Source: Eledone cirrhosa
Lineage: Eukaryota
Assembly: GCA_964016885.1 (NCBI GenBank)
Contig: OZ024741.1
Span: 99,262,001-99,326,000 of the forward strand
DNA: 64,000 nucleotides
Direction: 5' to 3'
In this document: positions 6,179-46,445 of the stretch, piece after piece
How positions within the stretch are numbered: position 1 is the first letter of the stretch
Layout: every line of letters begins with the position of its first letter
Position numbers and translations under genes: made by a program
Notes under the pieces: model-generated
What the model was told of the DNA's origin: nothing
The model's database searches: none
What the model saw: the letters and a program-made list of their open reading frames with translations, nothing else

Positions 6179-6406
6179 ATGGCTGCCCCATCGTTATCGA
6201 GTATGACCATTGCACGATATACCATTATTAATAATTATCAATTAATTCTATCGTGCAATGCCTGTGCGTGAAAATTTTTTTTAAAGTGAGGAAAAACTGT
6301 GCACTGAGCCAATCCCACTCTCTGAACAACAGTAACTATAACCTGGAAAAAAGAAAAGATCAAGATCATCGCTAACTACTGAGTCGCAAGTTTTATGTCG
6401 GAGTTA
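6179..6406 (+). mobile_element. (CATA)n-inserted structured non-coding element, type A (3'-truncated)
   Basis: ATGGCTGCCCC..CGTTATCGAGTATG head and shared GCAATGCCTGTGC..CCAATCCCACTCTCT core. Confidence 0.75.
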
Positions 6407-6419
6407 CATACATACATAC

Positions 6420-6892
6420 ATCATCTGTCCCGTAGTCTGGTGGACAGCACAGATGACCTGGCAACCAGCTCCTTCCATTCCTCTCGTCTCTCCGCCCTCC
6501 TCATGGTTACGCCCAGCCTCATGTCGTCCTTCTATCTCTTTCTCTGTCTGCGTCTCTTCCTTCCTCCTTGTATTGGTCTCTGCAGGACAGTCTTAGCAAG
6601 CCCTGCAGATCTTGTCACGTGCCCGTACCATCTCAATTTGCGTTTTTTTTTTTTTTACAATGGACAGCAGGTCTTCGTAGGGCTTGATGGCTTGCCAAAT
6701 TCTGTTTCTCACCTCCTCATTGGAGATGCGGTCTCTCTAGCTGATGCAAAGGATCATTCTGAAGCACCTCGTCTCCGTAGTCTGTATTCTTCTTTCCAGA
6801 TCTGCTGTTATAACTGTAAGTCTTACACAATAATTATTGTCCACGACTCACAGGCATGCAAGAATATGAATATGACCAAAGAGTGCGTCAAT
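6420..6892 (-). mobile_element. RTE (BovB-like) LINE 3' fragment
   Basis: Minus strand translates to RKLRWYGHVTRSAGLAKTVLQ..QGGRKRRRQRKR, a typical RTE C-terminus. Confidence 0.7.
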
Positions 6893-6983: not shown

Positions 6984-7335
6984 ATAGTGGCTGCCAACTC
7001 GTTTTCGAGTACGGCCACTACTTTATATCCATGTAGGAGAACCCCTACCGACGCGCTGAACGAGTGTGACTTTTTAGTCCAGCCAGCGACTTGAAAACTC
7101 TGGTACAAACACTACACTTGTGACAATTATTAACCCATAGTGCTGGGCCCTTGGTACCATGTGACGACAAGTGCGGAGAGATCTCCAGATATAAAGCAAT
7201 GCCTGTGCCGTGAAGCTTTTATAGTGAGCAAAGGCACTGCACAAAGCCAGTCCCACTCTCTTAACCAATATGATATTTACCAAAAAGAAGAACAAGTCAA
7301 CATCATTGGATACCATCAGGGTTGCAGGTGTTATA
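6984..7335 (+). mobile_element. (CATA)n-inserted structured element, type C
   Basis: GTGGCTGCCAACTCGTTTTCGAGTACGGCCAC head; homologous to 24758-24904 and 45842-46444. Confidence 0.75.
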
Positions 7336-28775: not shown

Positions 28776-29297
28776 ATGGCTGCAAACTCTGTTAAGAGTT
28801 TTGCAATCACTTGTCAGATTATAGAGTTTGGTGCACGTTTAGGCTACGACGAGCCACACGAACCTATAACATCCTGAACAAGCAATGCCTGTACTTGGAA
28901 GGTTTTTTTAAGTGGGGAAAGGCTTTGCACTCGACCAATCCCACTCTCTGAACATCAAAAACACTACCCGAAAAGGAGAACTGGTCAACTTCCTCGGATC
29001 CTTCCGAAACCGCAGGGTTTTTTTTTTCCAGCTTACCCACCCCTAGAAAGGTGTTGTGACAAATGGGGGCCTTTTACTCCTAGGTGAATTTAAAAAAATC
29101 TACCATTTGGATGGCCGTTGACGCTGCTGAGTTCCTCCGCCCTTTACCGGGTCTTGCATTTCATCCTGCAGGGTGTCCAAATATCACCCTCCTCACCAAG
29201 CAAGCTTGCCGGGTTGCTGGTTTAGTCGCCGACGACCCGACCATGAGACAGGTTGTACTGGGTTACATGTTACCAGTAGCACTCGAGAGCCACCTGA
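28776..29297 (+). mobile_element. Structured element type B (full length)
   Basis: ATGGCTGCAAACTCTG head, shared core, ends GAGAGCCACCTGA|CATACATA; homologous to 31942-32467. Confidence 0.8.
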
Positions 29298-29469
29298 CAT
29301 ACATAGATAAGTGCATACATACATACATACATACATACATACATACATACATACATACATACATACATACATACATACATACGAACATACATGTATACAT
29401 ACATATAACTATATAGGTTTTCTCGTTTTTGTTTACATTGAAGCGTATATATTCAAGTAATTACACACA

Positions 29470-29561
<92 letters not shown>

Positions 29562-29584
29562 CGTATGTGTGTATATATATTATG

Positions 29585-29776
29585 TCGGGTCACTCTTGAG
29601 TGCTACTGGTAACATGTAATCCAGTACAACCTGTCGCATGGTCGGGTCGTCGGGGACTAAACCGGCAACCCCACCAAGTTTACTTGGTGAGGAGGGTGAT
29701 TTTGGACACCCTGCAGGACAAAAATCAAAACTGACAAAGGGCAGAAGAACTCATAAGAGTCAACGGCAATCCAAAA
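29585..29776 (-). mobile_element. Structured element, type B 3' module only
   Basis: Reverse complement of the 29105-29297-like tail. Confidence 0.75.
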
Positions 29777-29846
29777 TGTGTAAATATGTATATACATGTG
29801 TATGTATGTATATGTGTATATACATGGGTGCATGTGTATGTATATG

Positions 29847-30186
29847 CGCGAGGACATAGAAATAGTCGGGCTGGACACCCGATCGCGCGGTTAAATCACT
29901 GGGAGGGAAGGACCCCTAGCCTTTGTCAAGGCATTCTTATAGGAGAAGGAGGAAACTGGGATAACTCCGATATAAAACCTACGGCTCAGTAGTTACCGAT
30001 GATGTTGATCTTTTCTTCTTTTCGGGTTATAGCTACTGTCGCTCAGAGAGTGGGATTGGTTCAGTGCACAATCTTTCCTCACTTTAAAAAATATCTTCAC
30101 GCACAGTGCATTGCACGATAGAATTAGTAATTATTAATAATGGTATATCGTGCAATGGCCATACTCGATAACGAGGGGGCAGCCCT
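29847..30186 (-). mobile_element. Structured element type A (full length)
   Basis: Reverse complement of 39142-39490. Confidence 0.8.
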
Positions 30187-31913: not shown

Positions 31914-31941
31914 GTGTGCATGTGTGTGTGTATGTATTATG

Positions 31942-32467
31942 TCAGGTCGCTCTCGAGTGCTACTGGTAACATGTAACCCAGTACAACCTGCCGCTTGGTC
32001 GGGTCCTCGGCGACTAAACCGGCAACCCCACCAAGCTTGCTAGGTGTGGAGGATGATATTTGGACACCCTGCGTGGTGAAATACAAAACCCGGTAAAGGG
32101 CGGAGGAACGCAGCAGAGTCAACGGCCATCCAAATAGTACCTTTCTCTATTTTTTGTTCACCTGTGAGTGAAAGCCCCACCTCCCAGTTGTTGTCACAAC
32201 ACCTTTCTAGGAGAGGGAAACTCTGAAAAAAACCTGCGGCTTCGGAAGCATCCGATGATGTTGATCCTTTTCGGGTAGTGTTTTCGATGCTTAGAGAGTG
32301 GGATTGGTCGAGTGCAAGGCCTCTCCTCACTTAAAAAAACTTCAAAGCACAGGCATTGCTTGTTTAGGATATGTTACAGGTTCATGTGGCTGGCCGTAGC
32401 CTAAAAGTGCACCAGTTTCTATAATCTGACAAGCGATTGCAATATTCTTAGCAGAGTTTGCAGCCAT
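31942..32467 (-). mobile_element. Structured element type B (full length)
   Basis: Reverse complement of 28776-29297. Confidence 0.8.
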
Positions 32468-32468
32468 C

Positions 32469-32528
<60 letters not shown>

Positions 32529-36614: not shown

Positions 36615-38690
36615 GATGACAGAGGCATCATCATCCTAGCTGGCGACTTCAATGGACGTGTTGTTAAGTACTAGGATGGCTACATTGGAATACACGGTAA
36701 CTATGGTTATGGCTCAAGAAATTTTGTGATGCAAATGAAATTACTATTTGCAACACTAACTTCAGAAAACCGGCCACTCACCTGATCACCTATTAGGCAG
36801 GCGAACACACACGCTAGATTGAGATTTTACTTGTTAGAAGACGAGATAGGCAAGTGGTTATGAATACTAAGTCTTTCCTCGGAAAAGAAGGCGCCACACA
36901 ACATAAGTTAGTTAATACTTATATCAGAATACGCACAAGGCGGAACAAGTATGGAAGAGATGTGGAGAAGGAGAGTGTAGAAGCTAAAGGATTTTTCAAG
37001 TTGAGGAGAAATAGATACATGTGACATAAAAAAAACAACCTACTACGGGTGACAGGTGAGATTCGTGGCTCAATTAAAGCACCAGCCAGAGAGAAAGTAA
37101 ACTGTTTGTGGAACAGCAGTGTGGATAGAGATGTTAAAGCCAAGAGATTTCCATGGAAAAATTGAAATAATAGAGACAGCAAAAATCAGCACGAGGTAGC
37201 TAAGTATGAAGCTTAATGACAGGAATATGTAGCAAGTAAAGAAACCGAAAACAGGAGGTTAATTTCTTCCAACGTGAGGATCAGAGACCTGACGTATTCC
37301 GCGTCGCGAAGCAGTGTCAGTGAAAATCAGATATTGTTGGGAAAGAGCGCAATTCAACTGACACCGATGCACTTAGCATCACTGACGCTAAAAAAAAAAG
37401 ACGCCAGAAAATTCTATTATGAGAAGTTGATGAATGTTGAGAGTGAGTGGGAGGAAGAAAGTCTACCTTTAGCTGACCAAACAGAGATAACAGGAACCGA
37501 AATTTACAGTTATAGGGTCAAAGAAGCCGTCGGACCGTTTGAGATATTTCTTGAAATGTTTTGATCTTCTGTGGAAGTAAGAATCGAACTAGTAACCCAC
37601 ATAACCAGCCAGGTGATATATGATGGAGTCATATTCAATAACTAGCATAACATTTTACTCAGTGATTGCTACAAAGGAAAATGTAATGCGCTACAAAGGG
37701 GCAACTATAGGGACATGAAAAAAATTAACAAAGATATGAATGTGACGAAAAGAATTTTAGCACAGCTATTTAGGGGAAGAGTTAAATTAGATGAGAAGCA
37801 GTTTGGTTTTGTGCTAGGAAGGATTACTATATATGCTCTGTTCTTAGTGAGAAAACTACAAGATAAGTTCCTAGCTATGTGTAAGACACTATATCTAGCT
37901 TACGTTGATCTGGAGAAGGCTTTTGCCAGATTACCATGACTTTTCATCTGGTGGTCCCTAAGAAGAATGGCTTGTGACTGCATTACAAGCCATATACAGC
38001 GAACGGTAAATAAAGTGATATTAGGTATTGAATTTAAGTGTGGAATTCAACGAGCAGATAGGTGTTTATTATCGTTTTCCAGGTCATAACGAAGGAGTTT
38101 AAAACTGGCTGTCCATGGGAATTTCTGTTTGCTGACAACTTTGTTCTTATAGCTGAGTCTGAGGAAGAGCTAGAGAAGAAATTTAGGCTTTAGAAATAGA
38201 ATTTAGAATCAAAAGGGCTTAGAGTAAACTTGGAGAAAACTAAAGTTTTGGTGCGTAGGAAAGAAGACAGGACACTGAAAAGTGATCTTGTTCGATATAA
38301 AACAAAGAATAGGTAGAAAATCTAAACTATGGACACAATGTAAATCTTCGTTTCACAAAAGGTGTAGTGGGATTGTAGAGAGACTAATCGAATTGGTTAA
38401 CTCTGTATGTTGCTGTATAGGGCTAGTTGATAGTAAAAAGTATCAGTGAAACAAACTTTGTTCCAATTCCAGGAAGGATCCATAGAAGTAATTGACAGCT
38501 CCTGCTACCTAAGTGATCTAATTAGCAGGGAAGGCGATTGTTCTAAGAGCATTGTAGCAAGAATAAGAACAGGAGGGAAATATTAAGAGGTCTACAAATC
38601 CAGTTAACAACAGTTGACAACAAAAGATATCCCTCTACTAACGACAGGCTGGTGGTATGATTTCTGTGTAAATTTTGCGATACTGCAACG
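36615..38690 (+). pseudogene. Decayed RTE-clade LINE (APE + RT)
   Basis: IILAGDFNG, CNTNFRKP..HLITY, QFGF, YVDLEKAF, GCPWEFLFADN, GLRVNLEKTKV; many stops. Confidence 0.8.
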
Positions 38691-39005
38691 GAGGAAGACT
38701 AGTCAACATTATCGGATGCTTCACCAGGTTTTTTTTTCAGAGTTTCCCTCTCTTAGAAAGGTGTTGTGACAACTAGGGGCCTTTCACTACCAGGTAACAT
38801 AAAAAAGTACTATCTGGATGGCCGTTGACTCTGCTGAGTTCCTCTGCCTTTTGCCAGGTTTTGTATTTTATCCCGCAGGGTGTCCAAATATCACCCTCCT
38901 CACTAAGCAAGTTTTGTGGGGTTGCAGGTTTAGTTGCCGATGGCTCGACCATGAGAGAGGTTGTACTGCGTTACATGTTACCAGTAACACTCGTGAGCTA
39001 CCTGA
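38690..39005 (+). mobile_element. Structured element type B, 5'-truncated
   Basis: Matches 28975-29297; ends CCTGA|CATACATA. Confidence 0.75.
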
Positions 39006-39141
39006 CATACATACATACATACATACTTACATACACACATACATACATACATACATACATACATACATACATACATACATACATACATACATACACACAT
39101 ACATACATACATACATACGTACATACATACATACATACATA

Positions 39142-39490
39142 ATGGCTGCCCCCTCGTTATCGAGTATAGCCATTGCACGATATACCATTATTAATAATTA
39201 TTAATTAATTCTATCGTGCAATGCCTGTGAGTGAAGATATTTTTTAAAGTGGGGAAAGACTGTGCACTGAGCCAATCCCACTCTCTGAGCGACAGTAGCT
39301 ATAACCCGAAAAGAAGAAAATTTCAACATCATCGGTAACTACTGAGCCGCAGGTTTTATGTCGGAGTTATTCTAGTTTCCTGAGTTTCATTCTCCTAGAA
39401 GAATGCCCTGACAAAGGCTAGGGGTCCTTCACTCCCAGTTGTTTAACCGTTCGATCGGGAGTCCAGCCCGACTATTTCTATGTCTCCGCG
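39142..39490 (+). mobile_element. Structured element type A (full length)
   Basis: Head hairpins, core and 3' CCAGCCCGACTATTTCTATGTC..CGCG|CATA. Confidence 0.8.
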
Positions 39491-39600
39491 CATATACACA
39501 CACATGCACCCATGTATACACACATACATACATACATACATACATACATACATACATACATACATACATACATACATACATACATACATACATACATACA

Positions 39601-41696
39601 TTTTGTTCCCCACTATTGGATGATAGAGGCCCTCCAACTTGCTAAAATACCAGACATTATTGTCAGAGCCTTGGAGAGGCTGTCTTCTTCTTGGGCTACT
39701 ATCCTAAGGTTAAAGACAGAGAGGGGGGACTCTATTTTCTCTGATAAAATAAAATATTGCAGGGGTACATTTCAGAGAGACAGTCTCTCTGTGATATGAT
39801 TCATCTTGTCATTAAACTCCTTGTCCTTTCTGCTCAAGAAATGTGAGGGATACATCATTGGCTCACAGGAGGACAGAAATACGAACCTAACCCATAATTT
39901 CTTTGTGGACGATCTGAAACTCTATGCCAAGAACATGGATGGGATGAAGAAAAATCTTGACCTGGTTACAACGTTCTCAAAGGATATAGGAATGGAGTTT
40001 GGCCAAGATAAATGCTCATACATGACTGTAAAGCGGGGAAAAACAACAACCCAATCTAGCAACATTGTCATCAATGGCCTAACTGTTTCACCGATATCTG
40101 ATGAGGACTGCTACAGATACCTGGGGATAGATGAGAACATATCCTATAATGGTATTTGTAATAAAGAACGCGTAACCAGGGAATACTACACCCGATTAAG
40201 AAAGATCTCGTCATCGGAACTCTCTGCGTAAAACAAAACAGTGGCTCACAATGTGCTTTCTGTGCCTGTCCTAACACCAACGTTTGGAATACTCAATTGG
40301 ACGATAGACGAAATCCGAGCAGTTGATGTTGGAACTCGAAAAATACTGAACAACACCGGAAACTTCCACATCAACAGTGACATAGACCGCCTTTACTTGA
40401 AACGTAAGCAGGGAATCAGAGGCTTAACATCAGTCCAGACAACATTTGAATGTCGCATCATATCACTCCGACAACATCTACGAACCTCGAAGCGTAGAAG
40501 CCCGTTTCTCGAGCAAGTCTATCTGCATGAAACAGATAAGATCATGAGAGTTGGGAAGGAACTCCTTGAAAGATATTCCCTGCGTGATAATCAAAAACTC
40601 ACACCCAGGGATGTCACTCAGCAATATCGCAGTGAATCCATGGATGAAAAACTGCATGCCTATCAGCAAAAAATTATGCATGGATATGTTGCCAGGAAAC
40701 TCCAGAGTGAGAGTAATATAGATGAGGAAAGTAGTCTATCTTGGACCAACAACCGCTATATTGGCTCCCACTTTGAAGGATACGCTTTTGCAATACAGGA
40801 ACAGGAGATTAGCACGAAATACCTGATTCACAAAAGAGATAGGGATGCAGGCAAAACACCTAGATCTGATAACAAGTGCAGACTCTGCAGAACTACATCG
40901 AGGATATACCCATGTCATCAGCAGCTGTCCAAAGATGTCATCGCGGTACTATCTACCTATGAGGCATGATGTAGTGGCCAAAACACTGTACAATGCAGTT
41001 CGTAAAAAAGATAGCCCCGATAATAAACACATTAAAAGCTACAACAATGTGGAAGACATCCATGTACATAATATGAAAGAGTACTGGTGGAATGTTCCAG
41101 TAAAAACCCCAATAAAATGCAGGCATAACAGACCAGATATTATGATATGGGACAGGGAGAAGAAAACATGCATAGTAGTGGAAATTAGCTGCCCAGCAAA
41201 TGCCAATATAATATCAAAGATTAGTGAAAAGGAGAATATTTATGCAGAACTGATGAGAAATCTGCAGATACTCCACCCTGATTACACCTTCAGATTTATG
41301 CCTGTGATTATTGGAGCACTAGGATATGTTACTAACTGCCTCAATACAAATCTTGAGAAGCTGGGCTTCACAGGAACAGAAAGAACACAACTAGTTAGGT
41401 AATTACAAGTACAATCCATTAATGGAACAGTAAAAATATGTAAAACATTTCAAAAATGTTGCATCTAATAACTGCATATACACATGTACAGATACAAAGG
41501 ATATACACATACACACATACAACTCAAAACATACACATCCACACATACAATAACATCCATATCTACACATGCATGCATACATACATATCTACCTAGTTGA
41601 TGTTGTGAAAATTCCAATGATAGAGTCGTGTGTCTAGGTTAGAAACTGACTCTCTCTCTATTGGTAACACTTTCTGAAATTATAAAACCAGAAGAA
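39601..41696 (+). mobile_element. R4/Dong-clade LINE, second long copy (5'-truncated in RT)
   Basis: FFVDDLKLY, YRYLG, CRLC..H...C, RHD, NRPDI..EIS; highly similar to 26590-28695; (CATA)n flanks. Confidence 0.9.
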
Positions 41697-42044: not shown

Positions 42045-42842
42045 ATGGCTTCCCCCTCGTTATCGAGTATGGCCATTGCACGATATAACATTATTAGTAA
42101 CTAGCAGAAAAACCACCCTTCGGGTGGTTTTCTGCTAGCATGTGTAGTGTGCATATTGATAGTATACGCAAGTATATATGCATGTAGATATGATACGTCA
42201 AATAAAATCGTAATTGACAATATCCACAGAAATTGAACGAAGACTGCGTTACTGTGTCTTATGTAATCAGTAACGTAATCCATGATACATTAAAAAAAAC
42301 GTTATTATATATAAATTGCATTAGGAGAAAATTAGTGACAGAAAATTAATATGTTTATTTAAGCGATCGCCACCGGAAGTGGTGAATCTTTAAATAAATA
42401 ATAAAATATATTTAATGAATAGGCCACGAAATTTAATAGATAAATTATGTAATATTCATTCATTATTTATTCAAAGTAATCCAACTTATTTTACTAGTGG
42501 GATAAAAAATTATAAACCGTACGCAGTCCCGCGCTTCTTACTTTATTATAGTTTAGATTATTAATTAATGCTATCGTGCAATGCCTGTGCGTGAAGATTT
42601 GTGAGGAAAGGCTGTGCACTGAGCCAATCCCACTCTCTGAGCGATAGTAGCTATAACCTGAATAGAAGAAAAGCTCATCATCATCGGTAACTACTGAGCC
42701 GCAGGTTTTATGTCGGAGTTATCCCAGTTTCCTGAGTTGCCTTCTCCTAGAAGAATGCCCTGACAAAGGCTAGGGGTCCTTCACTCCCAGTGGTTTAACC
42801 GCGCGAACGGATGTCTAGCCCGACTATTTCTATGTCCCCGCG
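42045..42842 (+). mobile_element. Structured element type A interrupted by a Helitron
   Basis: Joining 42045-42100 to 42558-42842 restores the type A sequence. Confidence 0.8.
42101..42557 (-). mobile_element. Non-autonomous Helitron
   Basis: Minus strand starts TCTAAACTATAATAAAG and ends with hairpin AAAACCACCC-GAA-GGGTGGTTTT then CTAG; inserted at A^T with no TSD. Confidence 0.9.
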
Positions 42843-42949
42843 CATATATATACATATGTATACATGTATATACATATATACATATATATACATGTGTGTA
42901 TGTTTATACATTTATACATACACACATATATCCATATGTATATACATAT

Positions 42950-45810: not shown

Positions 45811-45841
45811 GTGTATATATATATATGTATATATATTTATG

Positions 45842-46444
45842 TCAGGTCACCAGATGGTGCTACAGGTAACATGTATGCCAGTACAACCTGTCTCATGGTC
45901 GGGTCGTTGGCGACTAAACTGGCAACCCCACCAAGGTTTCTTGGTGACAAGGGTGACTTTGGACATCCTGCAGGTGAAAAACAAAACCTGTCAAAAGGGC
46001 AAAGGAGCTCTTAAGAGTCAATGGCCATCCAAAATCACCGGGAGAGATGACCCCTTAGCCTTTGTCAAGGGAGAATTCTAGAAGGAAAACTCTGATATAA
46101 CACCTGCAGTCCTGATGGTATCTAATGATGTTGACTTGTTCTTCTTTTTGGTAAATATCATCTTGGTTAAGAGAGTGGGACTGGCTTTGTGCAGTGCCTT
46201 TGCTCACTATAAAAGCTTCACGGCACAGGCATTGCTTTATATCTGGATATCTCTCTGCACTTGTCGTCACATGGTACCATGGGCCCAGCACTATGTGTCA
46301 GTAATTGTCACAAGTGTAGTGTTTGTACCAGAGCTCTCAAGTCGCTGGCTGGACTAAAAAGTCACACTCGTTCAGCGCATCGGTAGGAGTTCTACATGGA
46401 TATAAAGTAGTGGCCGTACTCGAAAACGAGTTGGCAGCCACCAT
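45842..46444 (-). mobile_element. Structured element type C (full length, ends in the type B 3' module)
   Basis: Reverse complement of 6984-7335, continuing into GGATGGCC.TTGACTC...GACCTGACAT. Confidence 0.8.
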
Positions 46445-46445
46445 G

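Follow-up and report, generated by a model that had tools for sequence, protein, structure and literature searches.

A conserved 5' UTR module of RTE-type LINEs in Eledone cirrhosa with a predicted H-type pseudoknot and predicted pairing to the RNA 3' end

Elements carrying the conserved block

The window, a 64,000-nt stretch of Eledone cirrhosa contig OZ024741.1, contained eight copies of a conserved block (the core) in three types of element. The copy at 39218-39286 lay in a repeat of about 380 nt bounded by (ACAT)n, and the block recurred across all three types; its conserved letters, as listed in a first-pass annotation, and its presence in each type were confirmed. The 3' part of this type-1 element was terminated by an (ATGT)n microsatellite, and the type-3 tail (45838-46445) matched the C-terminus of the LINE family RTE-A (see below) at 44% over 41 aa (E 1e-7). 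Coordinates of the elements and of the predicted RNA features are given in Table 1.

Table 1. Elements in the window and predicted RNA features of the type-1 element (pairings are model predictions)
Feature	Position	Strand	Remark
Type-1 element, by sequence a bipartite non-autonomous RTE element (5' UTR part + 3' end)	39142-39518	-	RTE-A likeness
(AUGU)n microsatellite tail / target	39005-39141	-	
Type-2 copy, architecture as in the type-1 element	31935-32490	+	
Type-3 copy, tail a remnant of RTE C-terminal zinc finger	45838-46445	+	
Further type-1 copy	29819-30184	+	
Type-1 copy, 5'-truncated	6179-6406	-	
Second type-2 copy, core region	28882-29020	-	
Type-3 copy, 5'-truncated, core region	7196-7334	-	
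Type-1 copy, 5' part, broken off after 5' arm	42557-42870	-	A 3' end at 42045-42103
Outer stem, 5' strand AGUGGG	39277-39282	-	Predicted to pair with 39248-39253; RNAfold MFE
Outer stem, 3' strand	39248-39253	-	MFE and covariation
Inner stem, 5' strand GGCU	39270-39273	-	Predicted to pair with 39258-39261; MFE in five families
Inner stem, 3' strand AGUC	39258-39261	-	Overlaps the strand paired with AGGC in the first-pass annotation
Loop GUGC, putative pseudoknot helix, 5' strand	39264-39267	-	
Putative pseudoknot helix, 3' strand GCAC (UCAC in this decayed copy)	39227-39230	-	
A-rich linker, putative loop 3 of the pseudoknot	39231-39247	-	
Invariant AGG	39224-39226	-	GG predicted to pair with terminal CC 39144-39145
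Putative clasp helix, 5' arm, 12 bp in this copy	39212-39223	-	
Putative clasp helix, 3' arm	39171-39182	-	In RTE-A 3.9 kb downstream of 5' arm
3'-terminal hairpin CUCG-4 nt-CGAG	39153-39164	-	Seen in types 1-3 and RTE-A

In the 3.0-Gb, microsatellite-rich genome, a strict pattern for the core gave at least 27,978 exact matches, versus none for the reversed control, and 18 cores at E <= 1e-3 were found in 800 kb sampled as 80 evenly spaced 10-kb stretches. The bipartite elements were dispersed and of high copy number, with 5'-truncated copies present; copies were embedded in microsatellites, which masks target-site duplications. At least five non-autonomous families, types 5 and 6 among them, retained the core, and likeness between the non-autonomous types ended a few bases past it. 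Inspected by eye, the element types of the window showed no tRNA-like head.

Two type-2 5' ends stood head to head across a microsatellite stretch at 29296-29780. At 39602-40500 (+), a reverse transcriptase fragment of another LINE, presumably R4/Dong-like from its motifs, began exactly at an (ACAT)n run, and decayed reverse transcriptase fragments of other RTE-like families were noted by eye at 38000-38660 (+) and about 6420-6870 (-).

Strand of the core and its relationship to RTE LINEs

An RTE-type endonuclease in a flank led to the intact LINE family RTE-A, the ORF of which (1,181 aa) had endonuclease (EN), reverse transcriptase (RT) and C2H2 matches. The reverse complement of the core was located upstream of the ORF/endonuclease, in sense, in 24 of 30 RTE-A loci. 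The core was also found upstream of EN in a second family, RTE-B (10 loci), and in a metagenome contig (L230), as well as in a decayed autonomous family (L321). The partner LINE was taken to be of the RTE clade partly from its protein motifs. Besides these motifs, the assignment used the 5' UTR's likeness to RTEs with Repbase names in the Kojima 2018 supplement.

The minus strand of the window is the functional one, because the block is in sense with the LINE ORF and because its G.U-compatible variation pairs better there; the paired fraction of the type-1 outer stem was 0.98 on the minus strand versus 0.82 on the plus strand. The block had initially been read on the other strand, which was wrong, the RNA being the reverse complement and lying in the 5' UTR of RTE-type LINEs. 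Window positions 39186-39492 shared 88% identity over 307 nt with the 5' UTR of intact RTE-A LINEs, and the last 41 nt of the type-1 element were 95% identical to the RTE-A 3' end. Since it matches both, the window element is, judged by its sequence, a bipartite non-autonomous RTE derivative on the minus strand.

Long T-runs preceded the 5' module, the ORF and the 3' end of RTE-A (L172, 1300-1863 and 5408-5643), and one RTE-A locus (L144) lacked the 5' module between two T-runs. RTE-A may be chimeric, looking as if a type-1 element had received the ORF within its AT-rich loop, and since it was possibly rebuilt in this way, RTE-A is not necessarily independent of type 1.

Endonucleases sought in the genome with Pfam belonged to L1/Tx1- and CR1-like elements, from which the core was absent, and a pattern search of the same genome for squid- or vertebrate-like core variants returned only mutated known types. 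A pattern scan of metagenomes gave 92 matches, one of which (L230) had an RTE endonuclease, while the remainder looked like chance. Two related metagenome contigs, L224 and L227, resembled the 3' two-thirds of the core at about 1480-1530; they were rejected as core carriers, having neither 5' stem strands nor an RTE protein, and the likeness is probably due to chance. No core was found in the viral and prokaryote collections.

Predicted pseudoknot of the core

On the sense strand, RNAfold predicted a two-part hairpin common to types 1, 2, 5, RTE-B and L230, with a loop of 8-10 nt (5 nt in L230); the minimum free energy (MFE) structures of the type 3 and RTE-A cores were other folds, and nested-fold z-scores of the core alone were modest (-1.9 to +0.9). 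Covariation points to a single H-type pseudoknot, in which the hairpin loop would form a helix with a downstream segment and an A-rich stretch would make the third loop. The alignment was small, with 10 related rows of which two were out of register in the inner stem; on it, this model had 94% of cells paired and two-sided change at four pairs. As high a score was reached by 6 of 500 shuffles, and slid registers gave 34-56%. The structural-register parse covered 134 of 245 profile matches.

The first outer-stem pair was A-U, G-C or C-G across families. In RTE-B the first outer pair became G-C, the inner stem CAGU/ACUG (34 of 36 cells paired) and the loop helix GCGC/GCGC, in place of the GUGC/GCAC of types 1-3 and 5, with pairing kept throughout. 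In types 3 and 5, pairing of the inner stem was no higher than 70-72%. The pattern by which RTE-B initially came to light demanded pairing; a second pattern with the loop left free returned it again with the same loop. As a control, single dead copies with a loop change carried a compensating base in 1 of 34 cases (by eye), after 5 of 39 loci had been set aside (two of another family, two without the downstream part and one with no loop change). Among published families in the part of the Kojima 2018 supplement used here, the loop pair read by eye was U-A in 8, C-G in 9 and ambiguous in 1 (n = 18), and the first outer pair was A-U in 8, C-G in 8, U-A in 3 and unpaired in 2 (n = 21). The pseudoknot helix is short, at 4-5 bp, and because its covarying pair occupies CpG-mutable positions the support from covariation is weakened, though not removed.

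The L321 variant GCAC/GTGC was left out of the covariation evidence, its sister copies showing CpG decay. A helix that would enclose the module, formed by AGGC with the segment just upstream of the outer stem, appeared weak and inconsistent by eye and was discarded. The A-run of loop 3 was kept in nearly all aligned copies, one window copy having lost most of it, and this A-rich loop may dock on the stem.

The first-pass annotation had described three mutually crossing pairs in the order 1-2-3-1'-2'-3'. This order of 4-bp complements was present in three of the five window copies tested, but not in the copy at 39218-39286. Some triple crossing arose in 100-215 of 500 dinucleotide shuffles (20-43%) for each of seven stretches; being so common, the geometry alone is no more than expected by chance, and the weight rests on conservation rather than on crossing. 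Two of the three pairs, AGTG/CACT and GTGC/GCAC, held up with two-sided changes, whereas the third (AGGC) had none: the earlier pairing model had 96.5% of cells paired and only two two-sided pairs, none in the third helix. On the sense strand the AGGC pair was 96-100% paired in types 1, 2, 3 and 5, in which it might form an alternative conformer, and dropped to 9 of 36 cells in RTE-B, and in the pseudoknot model the strand that had been assigned to AGGC is part of the nested, covarying inner stem. The two point changes reported for this copy both exist. GTGC>GTGA was private to it, but AGGC>AGAC was the major type-1 allele (48 of 55 parsed copies) and converts G-C to G.U on the minus strand and to a mismatch on the plus strand. 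The suggestion of a compact conserved tertiary module was supported on the opposite strand, as a predicted single H-type pseudoknot.

Complementarity of the 5' end to the 3' end

The 10-15 nt following the AGG were complementary to a segment just before the 3'-terminal hairpin, and the sequences of these arms were family-specific. From the covariation and folding models, the module would consist of the hairpin, the loop-to-downstream helix, a 10-15 bp helix between the arms (the clasp) and a GG/CC junction. The arms were 2.8-4.1 kb apart in autonomous LINEs, and the clasp site lay at a median of 19-23 nt from the terminal CC in non-autonomous copies. A clasp dG of -10 kcal/mol or lower was computed for 55 of 62 type 1, 36 of 42 type 2, 84 of 85 type 3 and 12 of 14 type 5 copies, the type-5 pattern having let in at least one type-2 copy; counts for type 6 were discarded, its pattern overlapping that of type 5. 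Cognate arms outdid those of other families in six of seven rows, type 1 and RTE-A sharing arms and being counted as cognate; the lone type-5 copy in this matrix, which was decayed, failed (266 of 1000 shuffles).

For RTE-B, the clasp was predicted before the 3' ends were examined, and in 7 of 11 copies the pre-terminal segment ranked first among about 700 windows; arms were mutated in the four remaining copies, which had ranks of 5, 9, 22 and 31. The 3' arm of RTE-B was 2.8-3.55 kb from the 5' arm and overlapped the last codons, and the clasp was split into 5 + 8 bp around an internal loop, although the predicted complement had been contiguous. In the forward scan of RTE-A the site ranked 8-11 of about 780 (five loci; a sixth was without the 3' end), and the reciprocal scan gave rank 1 in 7 of 11 RTE-B and 5 of 5 RTE-A copies.

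Folding from the core through the 3' end gave z-scores of -4.6 (type 1), -2.6 (type 2) and -2.3 (type 3). The GG of AGG was paired with the terminal CC in the MFE structures of types 2 and 3, but not in that of the type-1 copy at 39142-39518, and a terminal GCC was present in 58 of 62, 37 of 42, 79 of 85 and 11 of 14 copies of types 1, 2, 3 and 5, respectively. In types 2 and 3, GG and the terminal CC are thus predicted to make a three-way junction beside the repeat tail. Since GG would pair with the terminal CC, the invariance of AGG is explicable without the third crossing pair.

A 3' end at L014 1916-1982 (-) was 81% like that of RTE-B, with an arm change fitting the altered 5' arm of sister families (RTE-D/E). 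A match to an L014-like 3' end was located about 3.2 kb downstream of the L488 core; this placement and the arm fit, judged by eye, are suggestive only.

Possible role in reverse transcription

The block is the reverse strand of an RTE 5' UTR module probably composed of the H-type pseudoknot and the 5'-3' helix, which would serve as a likely platform for EN/RT. In the proposed mechanism, the RTE RNA would fold the 5' UTR pseudoknot, and the clasp would place this against the 3'-terminal hairpin and the tail, the site at which target-primed reverse transcription (TPRT) starts. By analogy with the R2Tg 3' UTR pseudoknot, the RTE endonuclease/reverse transcriptase may recognise the composite of pseudoknot and 3' end and bind it to begin reverse transcription. 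Internal deletions keeping both arms would keep the platform, and the 5' part of the parasites would accordingly end just past the core; the parasites would be bipartite because a composite platform needs both ends, which internal deletion leaves.

A further-reaching version, evenly balanced in our estimate between true and false, is that RNA recognition in this RTE subgroup relies on a split element, the pseudoknot being clamped to the 3'-terminal hairpin across an ORF of 3-4 kb, so that priming would be confined to RNAs that are full-length or internally deleted. If true, this would provide an inbuilt check on full length, conserved in cephalopods and from sea anemone to reptiles, would explain why the parasites are bipartite, and would add to the 3'-only signal of LINE RNA recognition a split one. 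The sections of Kojima 2018 drawn on here leave open the reason that RTE LINEs give rise to bipartite parasites retaining a piece of the 5' UTR, and the clasp would be a concrete answer. The model covers this RTE subgroup only, since other RTE-derived SINEs, according to the same sections (PMC5786205), retain different 5' UTR segments. It would also bear on RTE-based gene-writing templates, which, in the part of a review consulted (PMC13708176), carry both UTRs and are tuned through screening.

Alternative explanations

Four other roles for an RNA structure were considered, which rank in the order nuclease protection, translation, switch and catalysis. It is unlikely, in the first place, that the same fold shields uncapped RNA from 5'-3' exonucleases in the manner of a class 3 xrRNA, with the clasp merely circularising the RNA. 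The topology does resemble that of class 3 xrRNA, a stem-loop with an internal loop and an apical-loop pseudoknot (PMC12397905, in part), and RTE-B RNA would be uncapped following HDV-like cleavage (see below). However, the pseudoknot helix has 4-5 bp versus 9 bp in the solved example, the linker is longer, the 8-nt loop is too small to leave room for a T-loop, and the context of class 3 xrRNA is, in the text covered, a viral 3' UTR. Type-3 5' junctions falling 0-30 nt upstream of the core (52 loci) were spread over about 20 offsets by eye, with a maximum of 6 at one, in a tally of the first 100 of 754 matches listed, and landing of the clasp beside the priming site would be left unexplained.

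About as improbable is a translation element, in which the pseudoknot would recruit ribosomes cap-independently and the parasites would ride on ribosomes and seize nascent RT. The module is located in the 5' UTR, and 5'-3' pairing is common as an aid to translation. Ribozyme-processed LINE RNAs, moreover, require cap-independent initiation according to the part of a review used here (PMC6765202). Against this, the distance from core to ATG varied from 126 nt in RTE-A to 332 nt in RTE-B, upstream ATGs were present without a conserved small ORF, and the parasites dropped a second module of RTE-B and RTE-C that lies nearer the ATG. By eye, neither a slippery heptamer nor a stop codon was seen upstream at a conserved spacing, and a frameshift or readthrough signal was rejected on these grounds together with the lack of a conserved small ORF. 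The second module was located at about L299 1577-1800 and about L230 225-450 (minus), with RTE-B and RTE-C 63% alike across some 230 nt, and had an apparent covarying hairpin; no counterpart was found in RTE-A or among the non-autonomous types, and it is itself a candidate translation element.

More doubtful still is a switch, in which the strand after the loop would alternate between the inner stem and AGGC and so toggle the RNA between translation and reverse transcription states. The AGGC helix is nearly completely paired in types 1, 2, 3 and 5, and in types 3 and 5 its pairing exceeds that of the inner stem; read by eye in the Kojima 2018 supplement as far as covered, about 7 of 18 published families had all 4 of its 4 pairs. 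Yet this third pair showed no two-sided change, fell away in RTE-B and was absent from RTE-7_PM in the same supplement; both partners carry GG, so that the variation is compatible with either, and GG has an alternative candidate partner at the 3' terminus.

Catalysis was raised by the first-pass annotation, which called the block possibly catalytic. As it stated, the core does not fit the HDV, twister, pistol or hammerhead consensus: Rfam covariance models (twister, pistol, hammerhead and other ribozymes) had no match at the core, and a descriptor for the HDV-like fold, a nested double pseudoknot with P1.1, the L3 consensus and a catalytic C in J4/2, had none there on either strand, the same search having found a ribozyme in the RTE-B locus L299. 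This HDV-like candidate lies at the 5' boundary of RTE-B (L299 904-979), about 500 nt upstream of the core; the descriptor matched in one of two RTE-B loci scanned, and Rfam drz-agam-1 scored 31.4 bits there (E 0.0065), short of the 37-bit cut-off. The idea of a novel self-cleaving ribozyme built on three crossing helices would agree with the compactness, deep conservation and invariant bases of the core and its lack of an Rfam match, with the occurrence of ribozymes in RTE LINEs (e.g. twister in Perere-3, from the part of PMC8501958 used), and with the lack of an HDV-like fold in types 1-3 and RTE-A. Cleavage at the core, however, would remove the 200-600 nt that full-length copies of all types retain upstream of it, 5' ends of incidental copies were dispersed without a spike at the core, and triple crossing is frequent by chance. 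Because RTE-B has its separate HDV-like ribozyme and no spike of 5' junctions was seen, self-cleavage of the core is unlikely, and the three-helix ribozyme in particular is very improbable; the catalytic proposal found no support. Hairpin runs with apparent compensatory changes were noted at 31935-32080 (+), 45838-45980 (+) and 38870-39005 (-); they are shared by the 5' ends of types 2 and 3 and had no HDV descriptor or Rfam match.

No more credible than catalysis is an element acting at the DNA level, such as an internal promoter or a site for a factor, or else plain inheritance with incidental pairings, since, although Kojima 2018 speculates in the text covered that conserved RTE 5' UTR segments bind transcriptional regulators, the two-sided changes in three helices, the G.U strand asymmetry and the family-specific long-range complementarity point to RNA.

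Comparison with known systems

The platform reading may be set beside several described systems, cited here from the portions covered. R2Tg has, near the RNA 3' end, a likewise small pseudoknot with a helix, which is bound by the R2 protein and starts TPRT (PMC12222951); its clade and protein are different and its element forms one unbroken stretch within the last 67 nt, whereas the 5' UTR pseudoknot of the RTE module would reach the 3' end via a kilobase-spanning helix. The 5' RNA of R2Bm is likewise a 5' region with a proposed pseudoknot that directs a retrotransposon protein, but, unlike the RTE module, it lies within the ORF and governs second-strand cleavage (PMC2346776). RTE LINEs and Au-like SINEs have a terminal stem-loop before the repeat tail, as here, which is thought necessary to start reverse transcription; the portion of PMC6007223 covered deals with this 3' hairpin only, without a 5' partner or pseudoknot. 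HDV-like and twister ribozymes are also pseudoknotted RNAs in RTE 5' UTRs, but they occupy the extreme 5' end, and RTE-B appears to carry one besides this module.

For RTE elements, neither this pseudoknot nor any pairing of the 5' with the 3' part was found described in a literature search that left most subscription papers, patents and Repbase reports outside its range. Active RTE LINEs have been published in octopus (PMC9115989, PMC13282606, in the parts covered), and the portion of PMC13295347 covered makes no mention of RNA structure terms.

The element class and the sequence block are already known, while the proposed split RNA element is apparently undescribed. Bipartite RTE derivatives, also treated in part of PMC7245038, were published together with this block by Kojima 2018 (PMC5786205), in which the RTE-derived SINEs IdioSINE2 and MonoRep87A/B, like the elements of the window, comprise an RTE 5' UTR part and a 3' end. 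In the alignments covered, the block is visible by eye in IdioSINE2, MonoRep87 and about 19 RTE families; in MonoRep87 it makes up the entire aligned segment, and the block-bearing RTE families come, according to the supplement, from sea anemone, lamprey, coelacanth, reptiles and platypus. Those portions of the study present sequence similarity only, with no fold or 5'-3' pairing, and label the SINE 3' parts as 'unknown'. By eye, arm pairing and a terminal hairpin were observed in the published sequences of IdioSINE2 (7 bp) and MonoRep87A/B (9-11 bp), the 'unknown' 3' parts of which resemble RTE 3' ends in the succession of arm complement, terminal hairpin and end.
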